This document shows positions 15,576 through 44,815 of a stretch of 64,000 bases of DNA, piece by piece. The position numbers and the translations under genes are program-made. The DNA is taken from positions 83,562 to 147,561 of the forward strand of contig JAJDUH010000045.1 of NCBI GenBank assembly GCA_022826805.1, read 5' to 3'. Each line of letters opens with the position of its first letter. Within the stretch, counting starts at the first letter, position 1. Below the pieces are notes generated by a model, which was given only the letters and a program-made list of their open reading frames with translations, was not told where the DNA came from and did not search any database. The stretch is from Candidatus Poribacteria bacterium (GTDB taxonomy: Bacteria > Poribacteria > WGA-4E > WGA-3G).

Positions 15576-15635
15576 CCATTGCAGAAGCCTCACCCTTTAG
15601 GGTGAGGTCTATCACAAAGGCTATGTATGGGAGAA
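15450..15635 (+). ncRNA. Putative TnpB omegaRNA/reRNA: scaffold overlapping the tnpB 3' end plus flank-derived guide; boundaries approximate
   Basis: Established TnpB architecture; terminal hairpin and TCAC end, then candidate guide AAAGGCTATGTATGGGAGAA. Confidence 0.5.
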
Positions 15636-16073
15636 AAAAGGCGTGAGAATCAGAAACGCGAATCCATTTTTACTGTACGTGATGCCGAATCTGCTGTCGT
15701 TACCTATACAATTCTACTGTTTATCTATATTGTGGGGATATGTGTTTATAAATGGATCACAGGTTGGAACGGCACCTTGGCTGTGCTGGTCGAGTTAGAT
15801 ACGAATTATCCGTGATTTAACCGCGCCGCGGTGGCGTGGATTATCTGTAAAGAAGGAGTTGATATTATGTTACGGCGTTATAACGAATGGCGTGTCGAAC
15901 ATGCACAAAACCTTGAAAAAGCCAAAGCTGCAGGCATTGCCGAAGGTAAAGCTGAACTATACCAAGAGATAATATCATGGAATGCACGTCGATTGGAAGC
16001 CGAGGCGAAGGGACTCCCATTCAACGAACCGATCCCAGGAAACGGCACCCCTCCCCCCTCCAAAGATGATTAA
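15627..16073 (+). pseudogene. Small membrane protein gene interrupted by TGA at 15813 (two in-frame fragments)
   Basis: 15627..15815 and 15831..16073 share a frame; TM segment in the first part, charged AEGKAE..WNARRLEAEAKG tail in the second. Confidence 0.5.
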
Positions 16074-39134: not shown

Positions 39135-40175
39135 GTGGAAAATCAAACCCCCAAATCAATGAGCAGTCGCGAACGTGTACTCGCCGCGCTTCACAATGAA
39201 CCTACTGACCGCACCCCGGTTTGTAATCCTACATCCGTTGCAACTGTTGAGCTGATGGACCTCGTCGATGCGCCCTTCCCACAAGCGAATCGAGAACCGG
39301 AACTCATGGCGCGCCTCGCTGCGACAGGATACACTGAACTCGGATTTGACACTATCATGCCAGTCTTCACGATTATCCAAGAATCAAGTGCACTCGGATG
39401 CCAGATTCAGTGGGAACAGAAAGACAACTGGCCGACCGTTCGGATGCGTGAACCGATTTGGGAAGACGTTGACGACATCACGATTCCGGACGATTTTTTG
39501 ACGCACCCGGATACCCAATGTGTACTTGAAGCGATTAAAATCCTGAAGAAGGAATACGGGGATGAAGTCGCTGTAATTGGGAAAACGATGGGACCTTGGT
39601 CGCTCGGCTATCACTGTTTCGGGGTCGAACCTTTTCTGTTGTTGTCCCTTGACGATCCCGGTAAAACGAAACTCGCTCTTGATCGGATGAAGGAAGCCAC
39701 CGTACAATTTGGTGTAGCACAGATCGAAGCGGGGGCAGATGCACTCACGCTTCCAGATCACGCTACAGGCGATTTGGTGAGTGGGGAATACTACGAACGT
39801 TACCTTCGGGATCTTCACATTGAATTTGTTGAGCGTATCCCTATCCCTTTGATTCTTCATATCTGTGGACGCACGATTGATAGGATGGAGTACATCGCGC
39901 AAACCGGTATGGCTGCCTTCCATTACGACTCCAAAAATGAGCCGCAGGAATCCATGGACATCGTGCAAAAACGCATTGCCCTTGTCGGAAACATTAACAA
40001 CCCTGAAACGCTGTTTGCCAAAGAACCAGAGCATGTTAAAGCGGAAGTTACGAAAAATCTTGACGCAGGCATTCCACTGATTGGACCGGAGTGCGCGATC
40101 CCCCTACAAACAACCATCGAAAACCTTCAAGCGATCCCTGAAGCTGTCCGAGAATGGCACCGCGCGAACGCATAA
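39135..40175 (+). CDS. MtaA/CmuA-family methylcobamide methyltransferase (URO-D superfamily)
   Basis: SSRERV, HICG Zn motif, GNI, PEC. Confidence 0.8.
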   Translation: MENQTPKSMSSRERVLAALHNEPTDRTPVCNPTSVATVELMDLVDAPFPQANREPELMARLAATGYTELGFDTIMPVFTIIQESSALGCQIQWEQKDNWPTVRMREPIWEDVDDITIPDDFLTHPDTQCVLEAIKILKKEYGDEVAVIGKTMGPWSLGYHCFGVEPFLLLSLDDPGKTKLALDRMKEATVQFGVAQIEAGADALTLPDHATGDLVSGEYYERYLRDLHIEFVERIPIPLILHICGRTIDRMEYIAQTGMAAFHYDSKNEPQESMDIVQKRIALVGNINNPETLFAKEPEHVKAEVTKNLDAGIPLIGPECAIPLQTTIENLQAIPEAVREWHRANA

Positions 40176-40195
40176 TCACCCATGTGGAAAAACTT

Positions 40196-40804
40196 ATGAG
40201 ACAATTGATCTGTTTTTTGCTAATAGCAACGTTGACACTGACGTTCCTAACCTTCGGGCATACACAAAATGTGGACTTTGATCCGCTGAGTGCTTCTGAC
40301 GTCAACACTGATGGCGTTGTCAATATTCTCGACCTAACCTTCATCGCCTCCCGTTTTAGTGAAAACCTCACCATAGACCAACATCCGAACCCAGATGTTA
40401 ACGGGGACGGGACTGTGAATATCCTCGACTTAACACTGGTCGCAAGTTATTTAGGCAAAAGATCTGGGATTCCTTTTGAGGTCACGGACGCGAATTTTGA
40501 TGAGATCGTTTTGGGTTCTGAGCCGCCTATTGTTGTAGAATTTAAAGACGATACCTGAATATTTTGCATACGTATGCGACCGGTGGTCGCAGAGGTAGCA
40601 TTGGAATATCGCGAGAACTTCAGTTTCGTCAAGCTGGATGTGCGCACCCAACGGGAGAAAACGGCTGAATACCAAATTCGGGGAACGCCCACTTATATTG
40701 TATTTAAAGATGGCGCAGCTATAGGCGGATTTGCTGGGGCAATGCCTAAGGCTGAATTGGTACAGCGAATTCTTGAAATCTTAGGAACTGAAGAAAACGA
40801 GTAG
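40196..40804 (+). CDS. Putative exported selenoprotein: signal peptide, dockerin-like domain, thioredoxin with UxxC (TGA 40556-40558 read as Sec)
   Basis: ORFs 40154..40558 and 40574..40804 are in frame; join reads VVEFKDDT-TGA-IFCIRMRP; DVNTDGVVNILDL and DVNGDGTVNILDL; cis-Pro GTPT. Confidence 0.85.
40575..40591 (+). promoter_or_regulatory. Candidate bacterial SECIS hairpin 1
   Basis: TGCGACC-GGT-GGTCGCA begins after a 16-nt spacer from the TGA. Confidence 0.55.
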
Positions 40805-40841
40805 CGTGTTGATCACAAACTGATACACAAGAGGATAACAC

Positions 40842-42677
40842 ATGAAAAAAATAATTTGCTTATTGCTAACGCTAAGTCTGACCCTACTACTCATGCCAGC
40901 AAGCTACGCTCAAGATACAAATCTTGACCTTCTGAGGGCATCGGATGTAAATGGTGATGGCGTGGTAAATATCCTTGATCTGACGCTTATTGCCTCGCGT
41001 TTCGGAGCAATACCCACCGAAAACCAGCGTTTAAATCCAGATGTAAACGCCGACGGCTTTGTCAACATCCTTGATTTGACACTCGTTGCCGGGCATTTGG
41101 GCAAAACCGTCCGTCCACCCGTTTCATTCGTTAGCGCAAATCCAGGAATCGATTCGCAGCTTGATGTGAACGCGACGATTACCTTGACCTTTGACGATAC
41201 ACCTGATGACGTTACCGCGAACACAGGGATTGTCATAATCACTGATGAGACTGTGACAATCACGGGGGCCTTCGATCCGGGTTCTCTCGCTTTGACGGTT
41301 ACCTGGGCAGATGGCACACAAACACTTAACTATACCATCAGGCAACCAGCGGCATTCGTTAGTGTCGATCCCGCAATCGGTTCGCAGCTTGAGACAGACA
41401 ATACTATTACGTTGACCTTTGATAATGCACCAGAGGACGTCACTGTGAGTACGGGTACTGCTACAATTACCGATAAGACCGTGGTAATCACAGGTCCATT
41501 TGATCCAGGTCTTCTCGTCTTGACCATCACTTGGAAGGATGGAACGCAAACGCTCAATTATACCGTCAGACAACCGGTGGCGTTTGTTAGAGCGAAACCA
41601 GCAGCTGGTGCAACGCTCACCATTGATGCCCCTATTACGCTGACCTTTGATAATGCACCAGAGGACGTCACTGTGAGTACGGGTACTGCTACAATTACCG
41701 ATAAGACCGTGGTAATCACAGGTCCATTTGACCCAGGTCTTCTCGCCTTGACTATCACTTGGAAAGACGGAACGCAAACGCTCAACTATACCGTCAGACA
41801 ACCGGTGGCATTCGTTAGGGCAAATCCAACAAGTGGTGCGGAACTTGATGTAGGCGATACCATTACCCTTACCTTTGATAACCGCCCAAACAATGTTACA
41901 GTGAGCACTGGAAATGTTAGAATCACTGGCAGGAATGTGAGAATTACAGGTCCCTTTGATCCGGGTTCCCTCTCACTGACTATCACTTGGGCGGATGGGA
42001 GCAAAAGACTCAATTATACTGTCCGGACACCAGACACCGAAGCACCTCGAATTACGGGGAGAACCGTCAGCGACGGTGACAAAGACGTTGATCCCGATAC
42101 GATTAACACCAGAGCACGCATCGAAGTTGAGTTCAGCGAAGAGGTAACCGGCAATATTGTTCTACGAACTGAAGCAGGTGTCAATGCCGGTTGGCGTGGA
42201 CAAGTTGAAGGCAAGAAAGCCACCCTTGAACTGGTCAGAGGTAGAGAACTTGATAACGCGACCACCTACGTTATTGCTGGGAAAGTTAGCGATGCCGCTG
42301 GTAACGAAACCGATCTCAAGATTACCTTCACGACTGAGAGCAAGACCTCTGGTGTCCCCTTTGCGGTTACCGATGCGACTTTTAATTCGCTCGTTCTCCA
42401 ATCAGAAGTACCTGTCGTGGTCGAGTTTTGGAAAGATGGGTGACCATTCTGTCGAAGAATGGTGACAGTTGTCGCCGAAGCTGCCTCAGAGAAGCGAGAC
42501 ACATTTGCCGTCGCGAAAATGAATATTGCCCAGAGTCGGCAAACGCATCAAAAATATCGGGTTATAGGACATCCAACTTATATCGTGTTCCAAGATGGAA
42601 AGGTTGTCGGTCGTTTTGGAGGCGTGATCCCGAAACAGCAGCTGGTTAATAATATTCTTAATGCGATAAATAATTGA
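40842..42677 (+). CDS. Putative exported selenoprotein: signal peptide, dockerin-like domain, 4 x 76-aa Ig-like repeats, Big_5-like domain, thioredoxin with UxxC (TGA 42441-42443)
   Basis: ORFs 40842..42443 and 42459..42677 are in frame; join reads VVEFWKDG-TGA-PFCRRMV; cis-Pro GHPT. Confidence 0.85.
42461..42476 (+). promoter_or_regulatory. Candidate bacterial SECIS hairpin 2
   Basis: GGTGAC-AGTT-GTCGCC (one G-U pair) begins after a 17-nt spacer from the TGA. Confidence 0.5.
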
Positions 42678-42701
42678 TGACAGATCATTATTCGCGAGGT
42701 A

Positions 42702-42767
42702 TTGTACCGCAAACTGTTAGTTTGCGAAGGCTGCGCGAAGACCACAGTCTAACAGATTGTGGTACAA
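42702..42767. repeat. Imperfect inverted-repeat doublet (REPIN-like)
   Basis: TTGTACCGCAAACTGTTAG ... CTAACAGATTGTGGTACAA. Confidence 0.55.
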
Positions 42768-42803
42768 ATGCGCTGTTAAGTCTCACACTGATTACTGACA
42801 TTA

Positions 42804-42836
42804 AGCGGCGAGGTTTTCCAACCTCGCCGTTTTTTT
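42804..42836 (+). terminator. Intrinsic terminator after the selenoprotein pair
   Basis: CGGCGAGGTT-TTCC-AACCTCGCCG followed by T7. Confidence 0.75.
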
Positions 42837-42874
42837 GTCAAAATTACCTAAGTTGCACAATTTAACAGATTATG

Positions 42875-44815
42875 CTACAACTCATCTCGATGGTAAAACC
42901 ACCACTCTAAAAGTAAAATACCAAACGCAAGGAGTGCTGGAAAACGCCATATCTCCTGTGCTATCGGTTGTAGACCTGTTTCAAGCGATGCCGATTTTTC
43001 TTCCGCTTCTATCGTCGTAGCATGTGGAAGTGCGGATTCTGCAGCATCAAGCAGATTAACCGTGAAGCGTTCTAATTCTCTACCATCATCGGCGAAGAGT
43101 GTGTAGACACCCACCTGATCTGTCTGGGTGAATATCGAATCATCCAATCTGACCACTGTTTCATCCGGTTTTCGCACGTGAAGTGGTGTATCTGTGTTTT
43201 TTACTGCGACTATCACCTGTTCTCCCGTCCGAAAAGCGTGCCGAGTCCGCTCTTCTTGCGACACAATGGGTTGAAGCGTAGCGGTTCCTGCTTCCAACCA
43301 CGCCAAACACTGATAAATAAACAGCGGTCCCGCTGGTATTGTCATTGCAAAGGAAGAGATCTCTGGATTAAATGCGTCAAACTCGAAAACAAGGAATCGG
43401 GTGTCCGCTTCAGCACCGAACCAGATTAATGAACCCTTCTCCGTTTCAACAAGAGAATGTCCCCAGAGTGGTAAGTTCCGATATGTAGATTCACGCACCT
43501 GCAAACCTTGTAGGGATACACCTGCCATGAGTGGGTGCGCATCATCTGTTTTGACAACGCGCGCAGGTCCGTTACTGGTTTCTATAGAAGAAGCCTCTCC
43601 TTGCATGAAGGGTAGATTGTCGTCCGGATTGATAAAGATTAGATGCGTTTTGGCGCCAATCTCAGAAAAATTACCGAAAGCCTCGCGTCCGCTGAAGGTG
43701 CCACCATCGAAAATCGCTATATCAGCATCACCAGTTCCGTGATAATCCGCTGGTGGAACTATATCTAACACCACATGTCTTCCGTATGTGCGCAACAGAT
43801 CAGGCAATAAAGATTTCCGATTGTCACTGACGAGTAAGATTCGCAAAGGTGAGAGGCCTGATAAGATCACTGAAGCAGTGTTATCAAGCGGAAAATCGTC
43901 CTCTATCCCAAGATGGACACTGATAACCTTTCCTTCTAAACCGCTCGGATTGCCTGAAAACAGAACCGACTTGGTTTCTGCTGGCGGAATAGATATCACC
44001 CTGTCATCGAGTGGCGCGCTTTCCACCCGCAATTGAACGTTGAATTCTCTGGCGGTATCTGTGAAATTTTGGATACGAACCAGCACCTCGTACCAGTCTT
44101 CTATACTGTCAACGCTAAGTAGAACGATACCGATATTCTCAGCATCTCCGCCTATTGCAACCTTATGGAGCGGCAGGGATATATCCGGTAGCTTTTCAAA
44201 AGTATCGCTGATAAAGAAAACACTATCCTGCGGTGCGTCTGCATAGCGGGTTACAGCATCAAAAACAGGACGGAGATTGCGTGGTGCGTGGGTTGGAGGA
44301 ATATTTTCTATGGCACTCAGAAGTTGTGTGGTATCAGTTGTAAACGCTTGTTGGATATAGGAGTCCGCCCCTTCCCAGTAACGGGTGGGATGGCTTCGGC
44401 TTTCGGCTTGCGTCACCATGAGCATAATCCCGCCGCCTGCGGAAATTTGCTCAACCTGCGCCTGTGCCGCCTGCTTTGCGAGTGCAAGACGCGTTTGCCC
44501 CATCTCTTCCGACAACATACTCGCAGAGTTGTCAACTATAATGACCGCCTTTCCGGGCATGAATCCAGGTCTGCGCAGGACAGGACGTGCCACACTGAGC
44601 GTAAGGAGTAACAGAAAAAGCACCTGTAAGAGTGGAAGGAGTAGGTTCCGAAGCCGTTGGAACGGGACATTGGCTCTCCGGTCTTCGTCAGCAGATAGCC
44701 AATGCATAATGCTCGGAACGAGGTAGTTGTAGCGGCGCAACTTCAGGAAATGAAGTAGCACTATGATTGGAATTATACCTAACAGATAAAACGCGGCAGG
44801 ATTCAGAAATAGCAT
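42875..44815 (-). CDS. BatA/VWA-domain membrane protein
   Basis: FLNP N-terminus, LHFLK, ARP, MIDAS DNSASM, C-terminal LLLEWW TM. Confidence 0.85.
   Translation of the reverse strand: MLFLNPAAFYLLGIIPIIVLLHFLKLRRYNYLVPSIMHWLSADEDRRANVPFQRLRNLLLPLLQVLFLLLLTLSVARPVLRRPGFMPGKAVIIVDNSASMLSEEMGQTRLALAKQAAQAQVEQISAGGGIMLMVTQAESRSHPTRYWEGADSYIQQAFTTDTTQLLSAIENIPPTHAPRNLRPVFDAVTRYADAPQDSVFFISDTFEKLPDISLPLHKVAIGGDAENIGIVLLSVDSIEDWYEVLVRIQNFTDTAREFNVQLRVESAPLDDRVISIPPAETKSVLFSGNPSGLEGKVISVHLGIEDDFPLDNTASVILSGLSPLRILLVSDNRKSLLPDLLRTYGRHVVLDIVPPADYHGTGDADIAIFDGGTFSGREAFGNFSEIGAKTHLIFINPDDNLPFMQGEASSIETSNGPARVVKTDDAHPLMAGVSLQGLQVRESTYRNLPLWGHSLVETEKGSLIWFGAEADTRFLVFEFDAFNPEISSFAMTIPAGPLFIYQCLAWLEAGTATLQPIVSQEERTRHAFRTGEQVIVAVKNTDTPLHVRKPDETVVRLDDSIFTQTDQVGVYTLFADDGRELERFTVNLLDAAESALPHATTIEAEEKSASLETGLQPIAQEIWRFPALLAFGILLLEWWFYHRDEL

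Follow-up and report, generated by a model that had tools for sequence, protein, structure and literature searches.

Two neighbouring genes on the + strand of a contig from Candidatus Poribacteria, a sponge symbiont, each containing an in-frame TGA, raise the question of whether these codons are read as selenocysteine (Sec) and, if they are, by which signal in the message. The window we analyzed is a stretch of 64,000 nucleotides (nt) of contig JAJDUH010000045.1 in assembly GCA_022826805.1 (G000:C71:83562-147561, where G000 denotes the source genome), and positions below are window positions unless a G000 contig is given. The UGA positions and hairpin letters were read straight from the window sequence, and the co-directional genes, gene 1 (40196-40804) and gene 2 (40842-42677), were translated with TGA as U. 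A sequence-only reading of the locus had proposed that a hairpin a short way past each UGA is a candidate selenocysteine insertion sequence (SECIS). That proposal is supported here: the two distal hairpins are very probably ordinary bacterial SECIS elements, because they fit the bacterial model, the genome encodes the Sec machinery, they resemble the hairpins at its other Sec sites, they show covariation and synonymous constraint among relatives of gene 2, and the gene 1 hairpin is lost from orthologues that carry Cys.

That the codons themselves are meaningful is suggested by the proteins. In both, the Pfam thioredoxin domain (PF00085) runs across the U, at residues 95-192 around U121 in gene 1 and 508-605 around U534 in gene 2, with scores of 71.9 and 66.4 bits where the cut-off is 23.5, and U occupies the place of the first Cys of the CxxC motif. 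Identity is 50% between the two domains and about 40% between either of them and the genome's ordinary TrxA (WCGPC). Gene 1 also encodes a Dockerin_1 domain (residues 34-86), gene 2 Ig-like repeats and a Big_5 domain, and both translations begin with what we judge to be a hydrophobic leader. NCBIfam returns only a sub-cut-off thioredoxin match for either protein (64.8-64.9 bits against 96.8), and none of its curated selenoprotein families matches genes 1 or 2. Elsewhere in the genome we find a tRNA-Sec (78 bits, above the Rfam cut-off) that adjoins selB (G000:C61:20878-22773) on a contig other than that of the window, whose own tRNA scan was empty, together with selA and a selD that carries an in-frame TGA of its own. 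With tRNA-Sec, selA, selB and selD all present, the organism therefore uses selenocysteine, and from the domain span, the alignment with Cys and this machinery we predict that the UGAs are Sec codons. It is barely credible that they are ordinary stops, in truncated genes or pseudogenes, or that TGA has been reassigned to another amino acid. Our screen for such codons was mechanical and the reading of UGA is known here from sequence alone, but this alternative is contradicted by the retention of TGA in the gene-1-type copies of 32 of 34 genomes with intact frames downstream, by the thioredoxin domains that span the codons, by the complete Sec machinery, and by the use of TGA as a true stop elsewhere, in 417 long open reading frames (ORFs) and at the end of gene 2 itself, where a second TGA directly follows the first.

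The hairpins described by the sequence-only reading, TGCGACC-GGT-GGTCGCA and GGTGAC-AGTT-GTCGCC, are present at 40575-40591 and 42461-42476, beginning 16 and 17 nt past their UGAs, and they do have in common a GTCGC in the 3' arm and a G within the first two loop bases. The gene 2 stem comprises six pairs, one of them G.U, or seven with U42460.G42477, and the GGU and AGUU loops each start 23 nt after their own UGA. In the bacterial SECIS criteria as they appear in a 2026 review (PMC13188914, Fig. 2 legend), the loop has 3-9 nt and a G as its first or second base, as a rule with G or U next to it, the upper stem has 4-16 bp, the loop lies 16-37 nt from the UGA, and the minimum free energy is at most -7.5 kcal/mol. 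We re-implemented these bSECISearch criteria (Zhang and Gladyshev, via PMC13188914) in our own scripts. Both window copies lie inside every limit, with loops of 3 and 4 nt, stems of 7 and 6-7 bp, a G among the first two loop bases, which in the gene-2 type described below is invariant in all 39 sequences, a spacing of 23 nt, and energies of -9.9 (apical) or -16.7 (extended) kcal/mol for gene 1 and -8.6 (contiguous stem) or -9.2 (folding tool) for gene 2. As far as the consensus is set out in that paper, these are in-coding hairpins just past the UGA that differ from it in nothing essential. The idea that they define a SECIS peculiar to this lineage does not hold: they fit the general bacterial consensus, and the source genome's preference for a 23-nt offset and its repeated use of a C-AGUU-G loop are local habits inside that consensus.

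Measured against chance, the 36-nt element of gene 1 (-16.7 kcal/mol) has a z-score of -3.4, with 0 of 200 shuffles as stable, and the 20-nt hairpin of gene 2 (-9.2 kcal/mol) one of -4.2, with 1 of 200. When only contiguous stems that obey the model are scored, the genes reach -9.9 and -8.6, and a score of -7.7 or below is found at 1.9% of 3000 random in-frame positions, 0.5% of 373 CxxC Cys codons and 3.1% of 417 true TGA stops of the same genome. With bulges and mismatches allowed, gene 1 reaches -11.6, and 2.0% of 1500 controls attain -9.9. The best energy of an enclosing structure was dropped as a metric since it chose the wrong loops (e.g., in CUGSGK-4 and Prx UPFC), and apical-hairpin metrics were used in its place.

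The two hairpins had also been called conserved in position and divergent in sequence. The first part stands insofar as both loops lie at 23 nt, but the hairpins are not independent of one another. They occupy homologous codons, +7 to +11, of domains that are 50% identical, encoding M-R-P-V-V-A in gene 1 and M-V-T-V-V-A in gene 2, and both loops cover the third base of codon +8 and the Val codon +9. Relative to the reading frame, the 5' arms of the two genes (GCGAC and GUGAC) are offset by one nucleotide, and this slip accounts for the different loop sizes of 3 and 4 nt. The shared position and GUCGC arm, lying at homologous codons of paralogues, thus point to common descent and not to convergence.

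A comparison with the hairpins of selD and fdhA, which the sequence-only reading had suggested, finds them alike (selD with an AGG loop at offset 17; fdhA with a 7-bp stem bearing a GGUCU loop at offset 18), as are those of about 25 other Sec genes of the genome. These sites come from a mechanical screen for ORFs that read through a TGA with coding signal on either side, which yielded 155 candidates among 10,535; 40 were chosen by eye for Pfam and NCBIfam scans (38 others and the two window genes) and 115 were left unscanned. A domain spans the U at six AhpC/TSA sites (a two-domain gene accounts for two), at two HMA sites, with a third recognized by motif only, and at one site each for UGSC, Rdx/SelW, Thioredoxin_2/7, FdhA, SelD, Rhodanese, MoeB/ThiF, AhpD/CMD, FGE-sulfatase and a PrdB-like protein. 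The matches across the U also include an ArsC-family (seleno)protein above its NCBIfam cut-off; among the candidates, L015 has no Pfam match and belongs, above cut-off, to an NCBIfam (seleno)protein family. Across 27 Sec sites other than those of genes 1 and 2, a model-compliant hairpin of at most -5 kcal/mol is present at 25 and one of at most -7.5 at 16, compared with 26% and 8.2% of 1500 in-frame controls. Loop offsets at the genome's Sec sites cluster between 16 and 24 nt, 23 being the commonest (6 of 26), and hairpins with an AGUU loop follow 9 of the 29 Sec sites and 11 of the 1500 controls, three of the nine belonging to paralogues of one family.

Several of these loci deserve mention in their own right. 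Four paralogues of 392-563 amino acids (L017-L020; G000 C15:128435-130102, C30:46335-47951, C30:43341-45032 and C57:33431-34609) match no family in Pfam or NCBIfam and were retained on motif alone, a conserved in-frame TGA in (S/A)-C-U-G-(S/T)-G-K. Three of them (CUGSGK-1 to -3) have a C-AGUU-G hairpin at offset 23, and the fourth a GGUC loop at offset 24. Three heavy-metal-associated domains carry G-M-T-U-G-A-C (L025-L027; G000:C50:36836-38455, C75:27710-28129 and C75:28247-28606), and each is followed, 23 nt past its UGA, by the hairpin GUGCA-GGA-UGCAC; one of the three occurs in a fusion with WD40 repeats and a planctomycete cytochrome c domain. AhpC/TSA peroxiredoxin domains occur twice in a single gene (L028/L029; G000:C62:45626-46738), and a separate TGA (T-G-G-U-T and G-R-G-U-T) and downstream hairpin belong to each. 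In the less expected families LamG_3, DUF5069 and ATP-grasp ligase (L043, G000:C3:80571-81383; L046, C27:102982-103236; L051, C71:33384-34646) the TGA lies inside the Pfam match and the hairpins, with loops GUU, UGGA and CGGGAA, comply with the model; these may be unusual selenoproteins or broken genes. Nine screened candidates with neither a family nor a conserved motif (L039, L040, L045, L047-L050, L052 and L053) were set aside, as were L044 and L054, whose domains do not lie across the TGA. Among the nine, L052 is itself a read-through ORF of the window (15626-16070; G000:C71:99188-99634) and is probably not a selenoprotein gene.

Relatives of the two genes allow the hairpins to be followed through evolution. 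Members of the thioredoxin family occur in all 36 same-genus genomes searched, from which we collected 115 family sites, 94 with TGA and 21 with a Cys codon. Among the matches listed, relatives of at least 45% identity come almost entirely from Candidatus Poribacteria, with one from Calditrichaeota at 45%; in the matches listed for 24 genomes that belong to other families of the order, no TGA occurs and identity does not exceed 45%.

In the gene-2 type (39 distinct sequences, the window copy included) the motif GG-N-G-C-C-AGUU-G-U-C-N-CC is near-invariant, and RNAalifold, given no hint, returns exactly the distal hairpin. Pair 23:34 appears as C-G in 27 sequences, U-G in 6, A-U in 3 and U-A in 3, with a covariation score that none of 500 shuffles matches, and its changes replace the Ala residues encoded on both sides, by Val and Thr or by Glu and Ser. 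Synonymous entropy over codons +7 to +13 is zero, against 0.78 across the region, making this the lowest window of the 87 codons examined. In the paralogous GAEW/WAVW subfamily (16 sequences) the same C-AGUU-G hairpin, here UUGAUGC-AGUU-GCAUCAG, is displaced 12 nt in the 3' direction, and the distance from UGA to loop is 35 nt; paired cells amount to 97%, with one compensatory change, and the subfamily's lowest window of synonymous entropy, codons +11 to +16, lies over the hairpin, having shifted with it. Synonymous suppression at codons +8 to +13 is absent from the Cys subfamily EADWCPFC (14 sequences), and no consistent hairpin was found across 20 sequences of Cys paralogues.

Gene-1-type sequences are present in 34 of the 36 genomes, with TGA in 32, TGC in G011 and a remnant in G009. 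In the nearest clade (18 sequences) all seven pairs are kept in 12, or in 13 with the inclusion of a sequence whose sole loss is the terminal U-A pair. Over codons +8 to +12 the synonymous entropy is 0-0.32, against 0.82 overall, although this is not the lowest window. In two Poribacteria genomes the gene-1 orthologue has Cys (C-G-F-C) in place of Sec (L073/L177 and L184), and the hairpin with the G loop is gone from both; we regard these as natural Sec/Cys switches within a clade that otherwise bears UGA. The copy in G009 (L107; G009:C79:69966-70400) is intact from C-I-L-M-K-P-V-V onward and preceded by unrelated sequence with stops, and is judged to be a 5'-truncated remnant without the UGA. 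The expectation that true SECIS hairpins should persist in TGA-bearing orthologues is borne out, with covariation, in the gene-2 type and only in part for gene 1, whose hairpin is kept in the nearest clade without compensatory changes and gives way to a different and weaker one in a second clade. Likewise, that they should not be equally present in Cys orthologues holds for gene 1, in two of two, whereas for the gene-2 type energy does not separate Sec sequences from Cys paralogues.

A number of observations weigh against reading the distal hairpins as SECIS elements. The compared sequences are kin, and counts across them overstate the support. Most gene-2-type relatives miss -7.5 kcal/mol when the apical hairpin is scored by itself, as the model is given in PMC13188914: the median of the 38 relatives is -4.5, and -5 or below is reached by 5 of 38, compared with 7 of 20 Cys paralogues. 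Energy alone therefore fails as a separator of Sec from Cys in this type, and covariation and synonymous constraint were relied on instead. In 38 of the 39 sequences a C.U mismatch takes the place of the second pair from the loop, for which the window copy alone has A-U, and with flexible stems gene 2 itself reaches only -7.7, where 8.2% of controls attain -7.5. For gene 1, an internal mismatch, mostly a synonymous change of CGA to AGA, occurs in 6 (or 5) of the 18 nearest-clade sequences; six further sequences from public records have wobble changes and mismatches, and neither set contains a compensatory double change. The pairs of a possible lower stem are kept weakly and without compensatory changes in RNAalifold. 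The second clade (12 distinct sequences, about 70% identical) has a 4-bp CUGU-GGUC-ACAG hairpin 3 nt downstream instead, at -1.1 kcal/mol in most, and the Group-B hairpin register on the mixed gene-1 alignment pairs 60% of cells without significant covariation. The Cys orthologue L073 carries an unrelated compliant hairpin (offset 32, -5.4). An Rfam scan of 40100-42900 (E up to 10) returned no SECIS family, only three matches to unrelated families, all below their gathering scores, the suitability of Rfam models for bacterial SECIS of this kind being unchecked. Finally, in the free 60-mer of gene 2 the minimum-energy fold is a proximal hairpin and not the distal one.

Several of these points could be accommodated if the hairpins were a by-product of the conserved M-x-P-V-V-A residues and of codon preference, with the real signal being another, perhaps longer, structure or none that we see. 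The 3' arm does encode the conserved V-V-A, gene 1 lacks compensatory changes, the hairpin of its second clade is marginal, and most gene-2-type hairpins are weak. We nevertheless consider this explanation improbable. Protein conservation does not account for synonymous sites that in the gene-2 type are frozen exactly over the hairpin, nor for a frozen window that shifts in GAEW, and neither feature is seen in Cys paralogues that encode P-I/V-V. Pair 23:34 is maintained through nonsynonymous changes on both sides, and the same C-AGUU-G hairpin stands at offset 23 in CUGSGK-1 to -3, which belong to an unrelated selenoprotein family.

The sequence-only reading had also drawn a competing proximal hairpin in each gene. 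Both are present, GCATA-CG-TATGC in gene 1 and ACCATTCT-GTCGA-AGAATGGT in gene 2, but a competing role finds no support from covariation. In gene 1 the 2-nt loop as drawn is impossible, and the folding tool yields a form with six pairs and a 4-nt loop at only -3.5 kcal/mol (z -2.0), as stable as which are 13 of 200 shuffles. The gene 2 version is far from chance (-10.6 kcal/mol, z -4.4, 0 of 200 shuffles), and it wins in the free 60-mer because it shares the GGU with the distal 5' arm. Its strength, its inclusion of the A of the UGA, and a pairing of 78.5% of cells in register across the gene-2 type, compared with 35-59% in slid registers, could suggest that the SECIS consists of the proximal hairpins or requires them, perhaps in gene 2 through a lower helix that takes in the UGA, an arrangement known from E. 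coli fdhF. This is very unlikely, given that their loops lie 7 nt (gene 2) and about 11 nt (gene 1) after the UGA, outside the 16-37 nt of the model, that covariation across the gene-2-type sequences does not go beyond the shuffles (191 of 500 reach the observed score), that the hairpin is missing from their RNAalifold consensus, that the gene 1 version is at chance level, and that with the UGA in the A site the ribosome would enclose the 5' arm. The proximal hairpins, we infer, do not serve as the recoding signal, and the ribosome would unfold them ahead of decoding.

If the distal hairpins are the SECIS elements, decoding would follow the familiar bacterial course. Structural work on the E. 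coli ribosome places the nucleotides that follow the A-site codon within the mRNA channel. With the UGA in the A site, some 7-10 nt past the codon would be inside this channel, and a hairpin 16-17 nt downstream would sit at its entrance. There the apical loop, which contains G and U (GGU or AGUU), would be bound by the C-terminal domain of SelB.GTP.Sec-tRNA(Sec), and SelB would deliver selenocysteine, averting termination by release factor 2. This would yield an exported dockerin-thioredoxin whose redox motif is U-x-x-C. The proximal hairpin of gene 2 begins at the A of the UGA and, until opened by the ribosome, may mask 3 nt of the 5' arm of the SECIS. SelB binding, Sec insertion itself and the geometry on the ribosome are all predictions. 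Table 1 gives the coordinates of these elements.

Table 1. Features of the two-gene locus, in window positions; gene products and the roles of codons and hairpins are predictions.
Feature	Position	Strand	Remarks
Gene 1, exported dockerin-thioredoxin selenoprotein (predicted)	40196..40804	+	202 aa; U121; D-T-U-I-F-C; stop TAG
Gene 2, exported dockerin / Ig-like repeats / Big_5 / thioredoxin selenoprotein (predicted)	40842..42677	+	611 aa; U534; D-G-U-P-F-C
Predicted Sec-UGA of gene 1	40556..40558	+	aligns with first Cys of WCGPC in the genome's TrxA; TGC/TGT in two orthologues
Predicted Sec-UGA of gene 2	42441..42443	+	aligns with first Cys of TrxA WCGPC; TGA kept in 39/39 gene-2-type sequences
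Probable SECIS apical hairpin of gene 1, UGCGACC-GGU-GGUCGCA	40575..40591	+	7 Watson-Crick pairs; -9.9 kcal/mol
Probable SECIS apical hairpin of gene 2, (U)GGUGAC-AGUU-GUCGCC(G)	42460..42477	+	core 42461-42476; -8.6 (contiguous stem), -9.2 (folding tool) kcal/mol
Possible extended SECIS of gene 1, lower stem UGCAUAC/GUAGCA round the apical hairpin	40565..40600	+	-16.7 kcal/mol, z -3.4
Proximal hairpin of gene 1, GCAUA-CG-UAUGC	40566..40577	+	overlaps SECIS 5' arm; weak
Proximal hairpin of gene 2, ACCAUUCU-GUCGA-AGAAUGGU	42443..42463	+	holds A of UGA; GGU common to SECIS 5' arm
Intrinsic terminator 3' of gene 2	42803..42832	+	13-pair stem, then T run

Other features of the locus bear on gene 2 and its surroundings. 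Its four Ig-like repeats lie in tandem at 41100-42010, each of about 76 residues (228 nt); repeats 2 and 3 are near-identical in DNA, and the minus strand opposite carries a matching ladder of 228-nt ORFs. A scan of 40000-43000 found four terminator-like sites besides the intrinsic terminator. The pair on the + strand (40426-40442 and 41563-41580) are 5-pair stems upstream of a UGA, and the scan placed no + strand site between either Sec-UGA and 42803-42832. Within 42675-42770, a stretch that begins with the tandem TGA, the 3' untranslated region has two hairpins, GCAAAC-TGTTA-GTTTGC (42709-25) and ACCACA-GTCTAACAGAT-TGTGGT (42741-63), whose loops hold the mutually complementary words CTGTTAG and CTAACAG; Rfam gave these hairpins weak sub-threshold matches only.

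Set beside known systems, the two genes are familiar in their essentials. The SECIS of E. coli fdhF is likewise a stem-loop with a G-U-containing loop recognized by SelB, and the fdhA element of the source genome closely resembles it. The minimal fdhF element has its stem about 11 nt after the UGA, whereas the stems of the thioredoxin genes start at 16-17 nt, show no evident bulged U and leave the UGA outside any coaxial lower helix. Thioredoxins of PF00085 with UxxC are counted among the characterized prokaryotic selenoproteins in PMC13188914, and as described there they likewise have Sec for the N-terminal Cys of CxxC in a thioredoxin fold; to this, genes 1 and 2 add a signal peptide and a dockerin, and gene 2 the Ig-like repeats. 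The words sponge and Poribacter are absent from the text of that paper. In the searchable literature we found nothing on the selenoproteome of the phylum Poribacteria and no paper that brings together dockerin, selenoprotein and thioredoxin; a Sec-type hydrogenase from Poribacteria receives a mention in one paper.

Overall, since the hairpins fit the ordinary bacterial signal for Sec insertion, we regard the locus as a sound but unsurprising case: the mechanism is textbook, and the genes are a further example of known bacterial SECIS use. A bolder view, which we hold only tentatively and think rather unlikely, is that the SECIS is an evolving, movable module in a much-amplified, Poribacteria-specific family of exported thioredoxin selenoproteins, set as C-AGUU-G at 23 nt in one subfamily and 35 nt in another, replaced in a third by hairpins with GGU or GGUC, its pairs kept by paired residue changes, with the gene 2 proximal hairpin as a switch opened by the ribosome. 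If this were true, an RNA signal would dictate part of the protein sequence beside the active site. On the preferred reading of the distal hairpins as ordinary SECIS elements, genes 1 and 2 become two single selenoprotein genes rather than four fragments, and the approximately 29 checked examples of SECIS that one Poribacteria genome provides could guide corrections to gene calls in the genomes of sponge symbionts.

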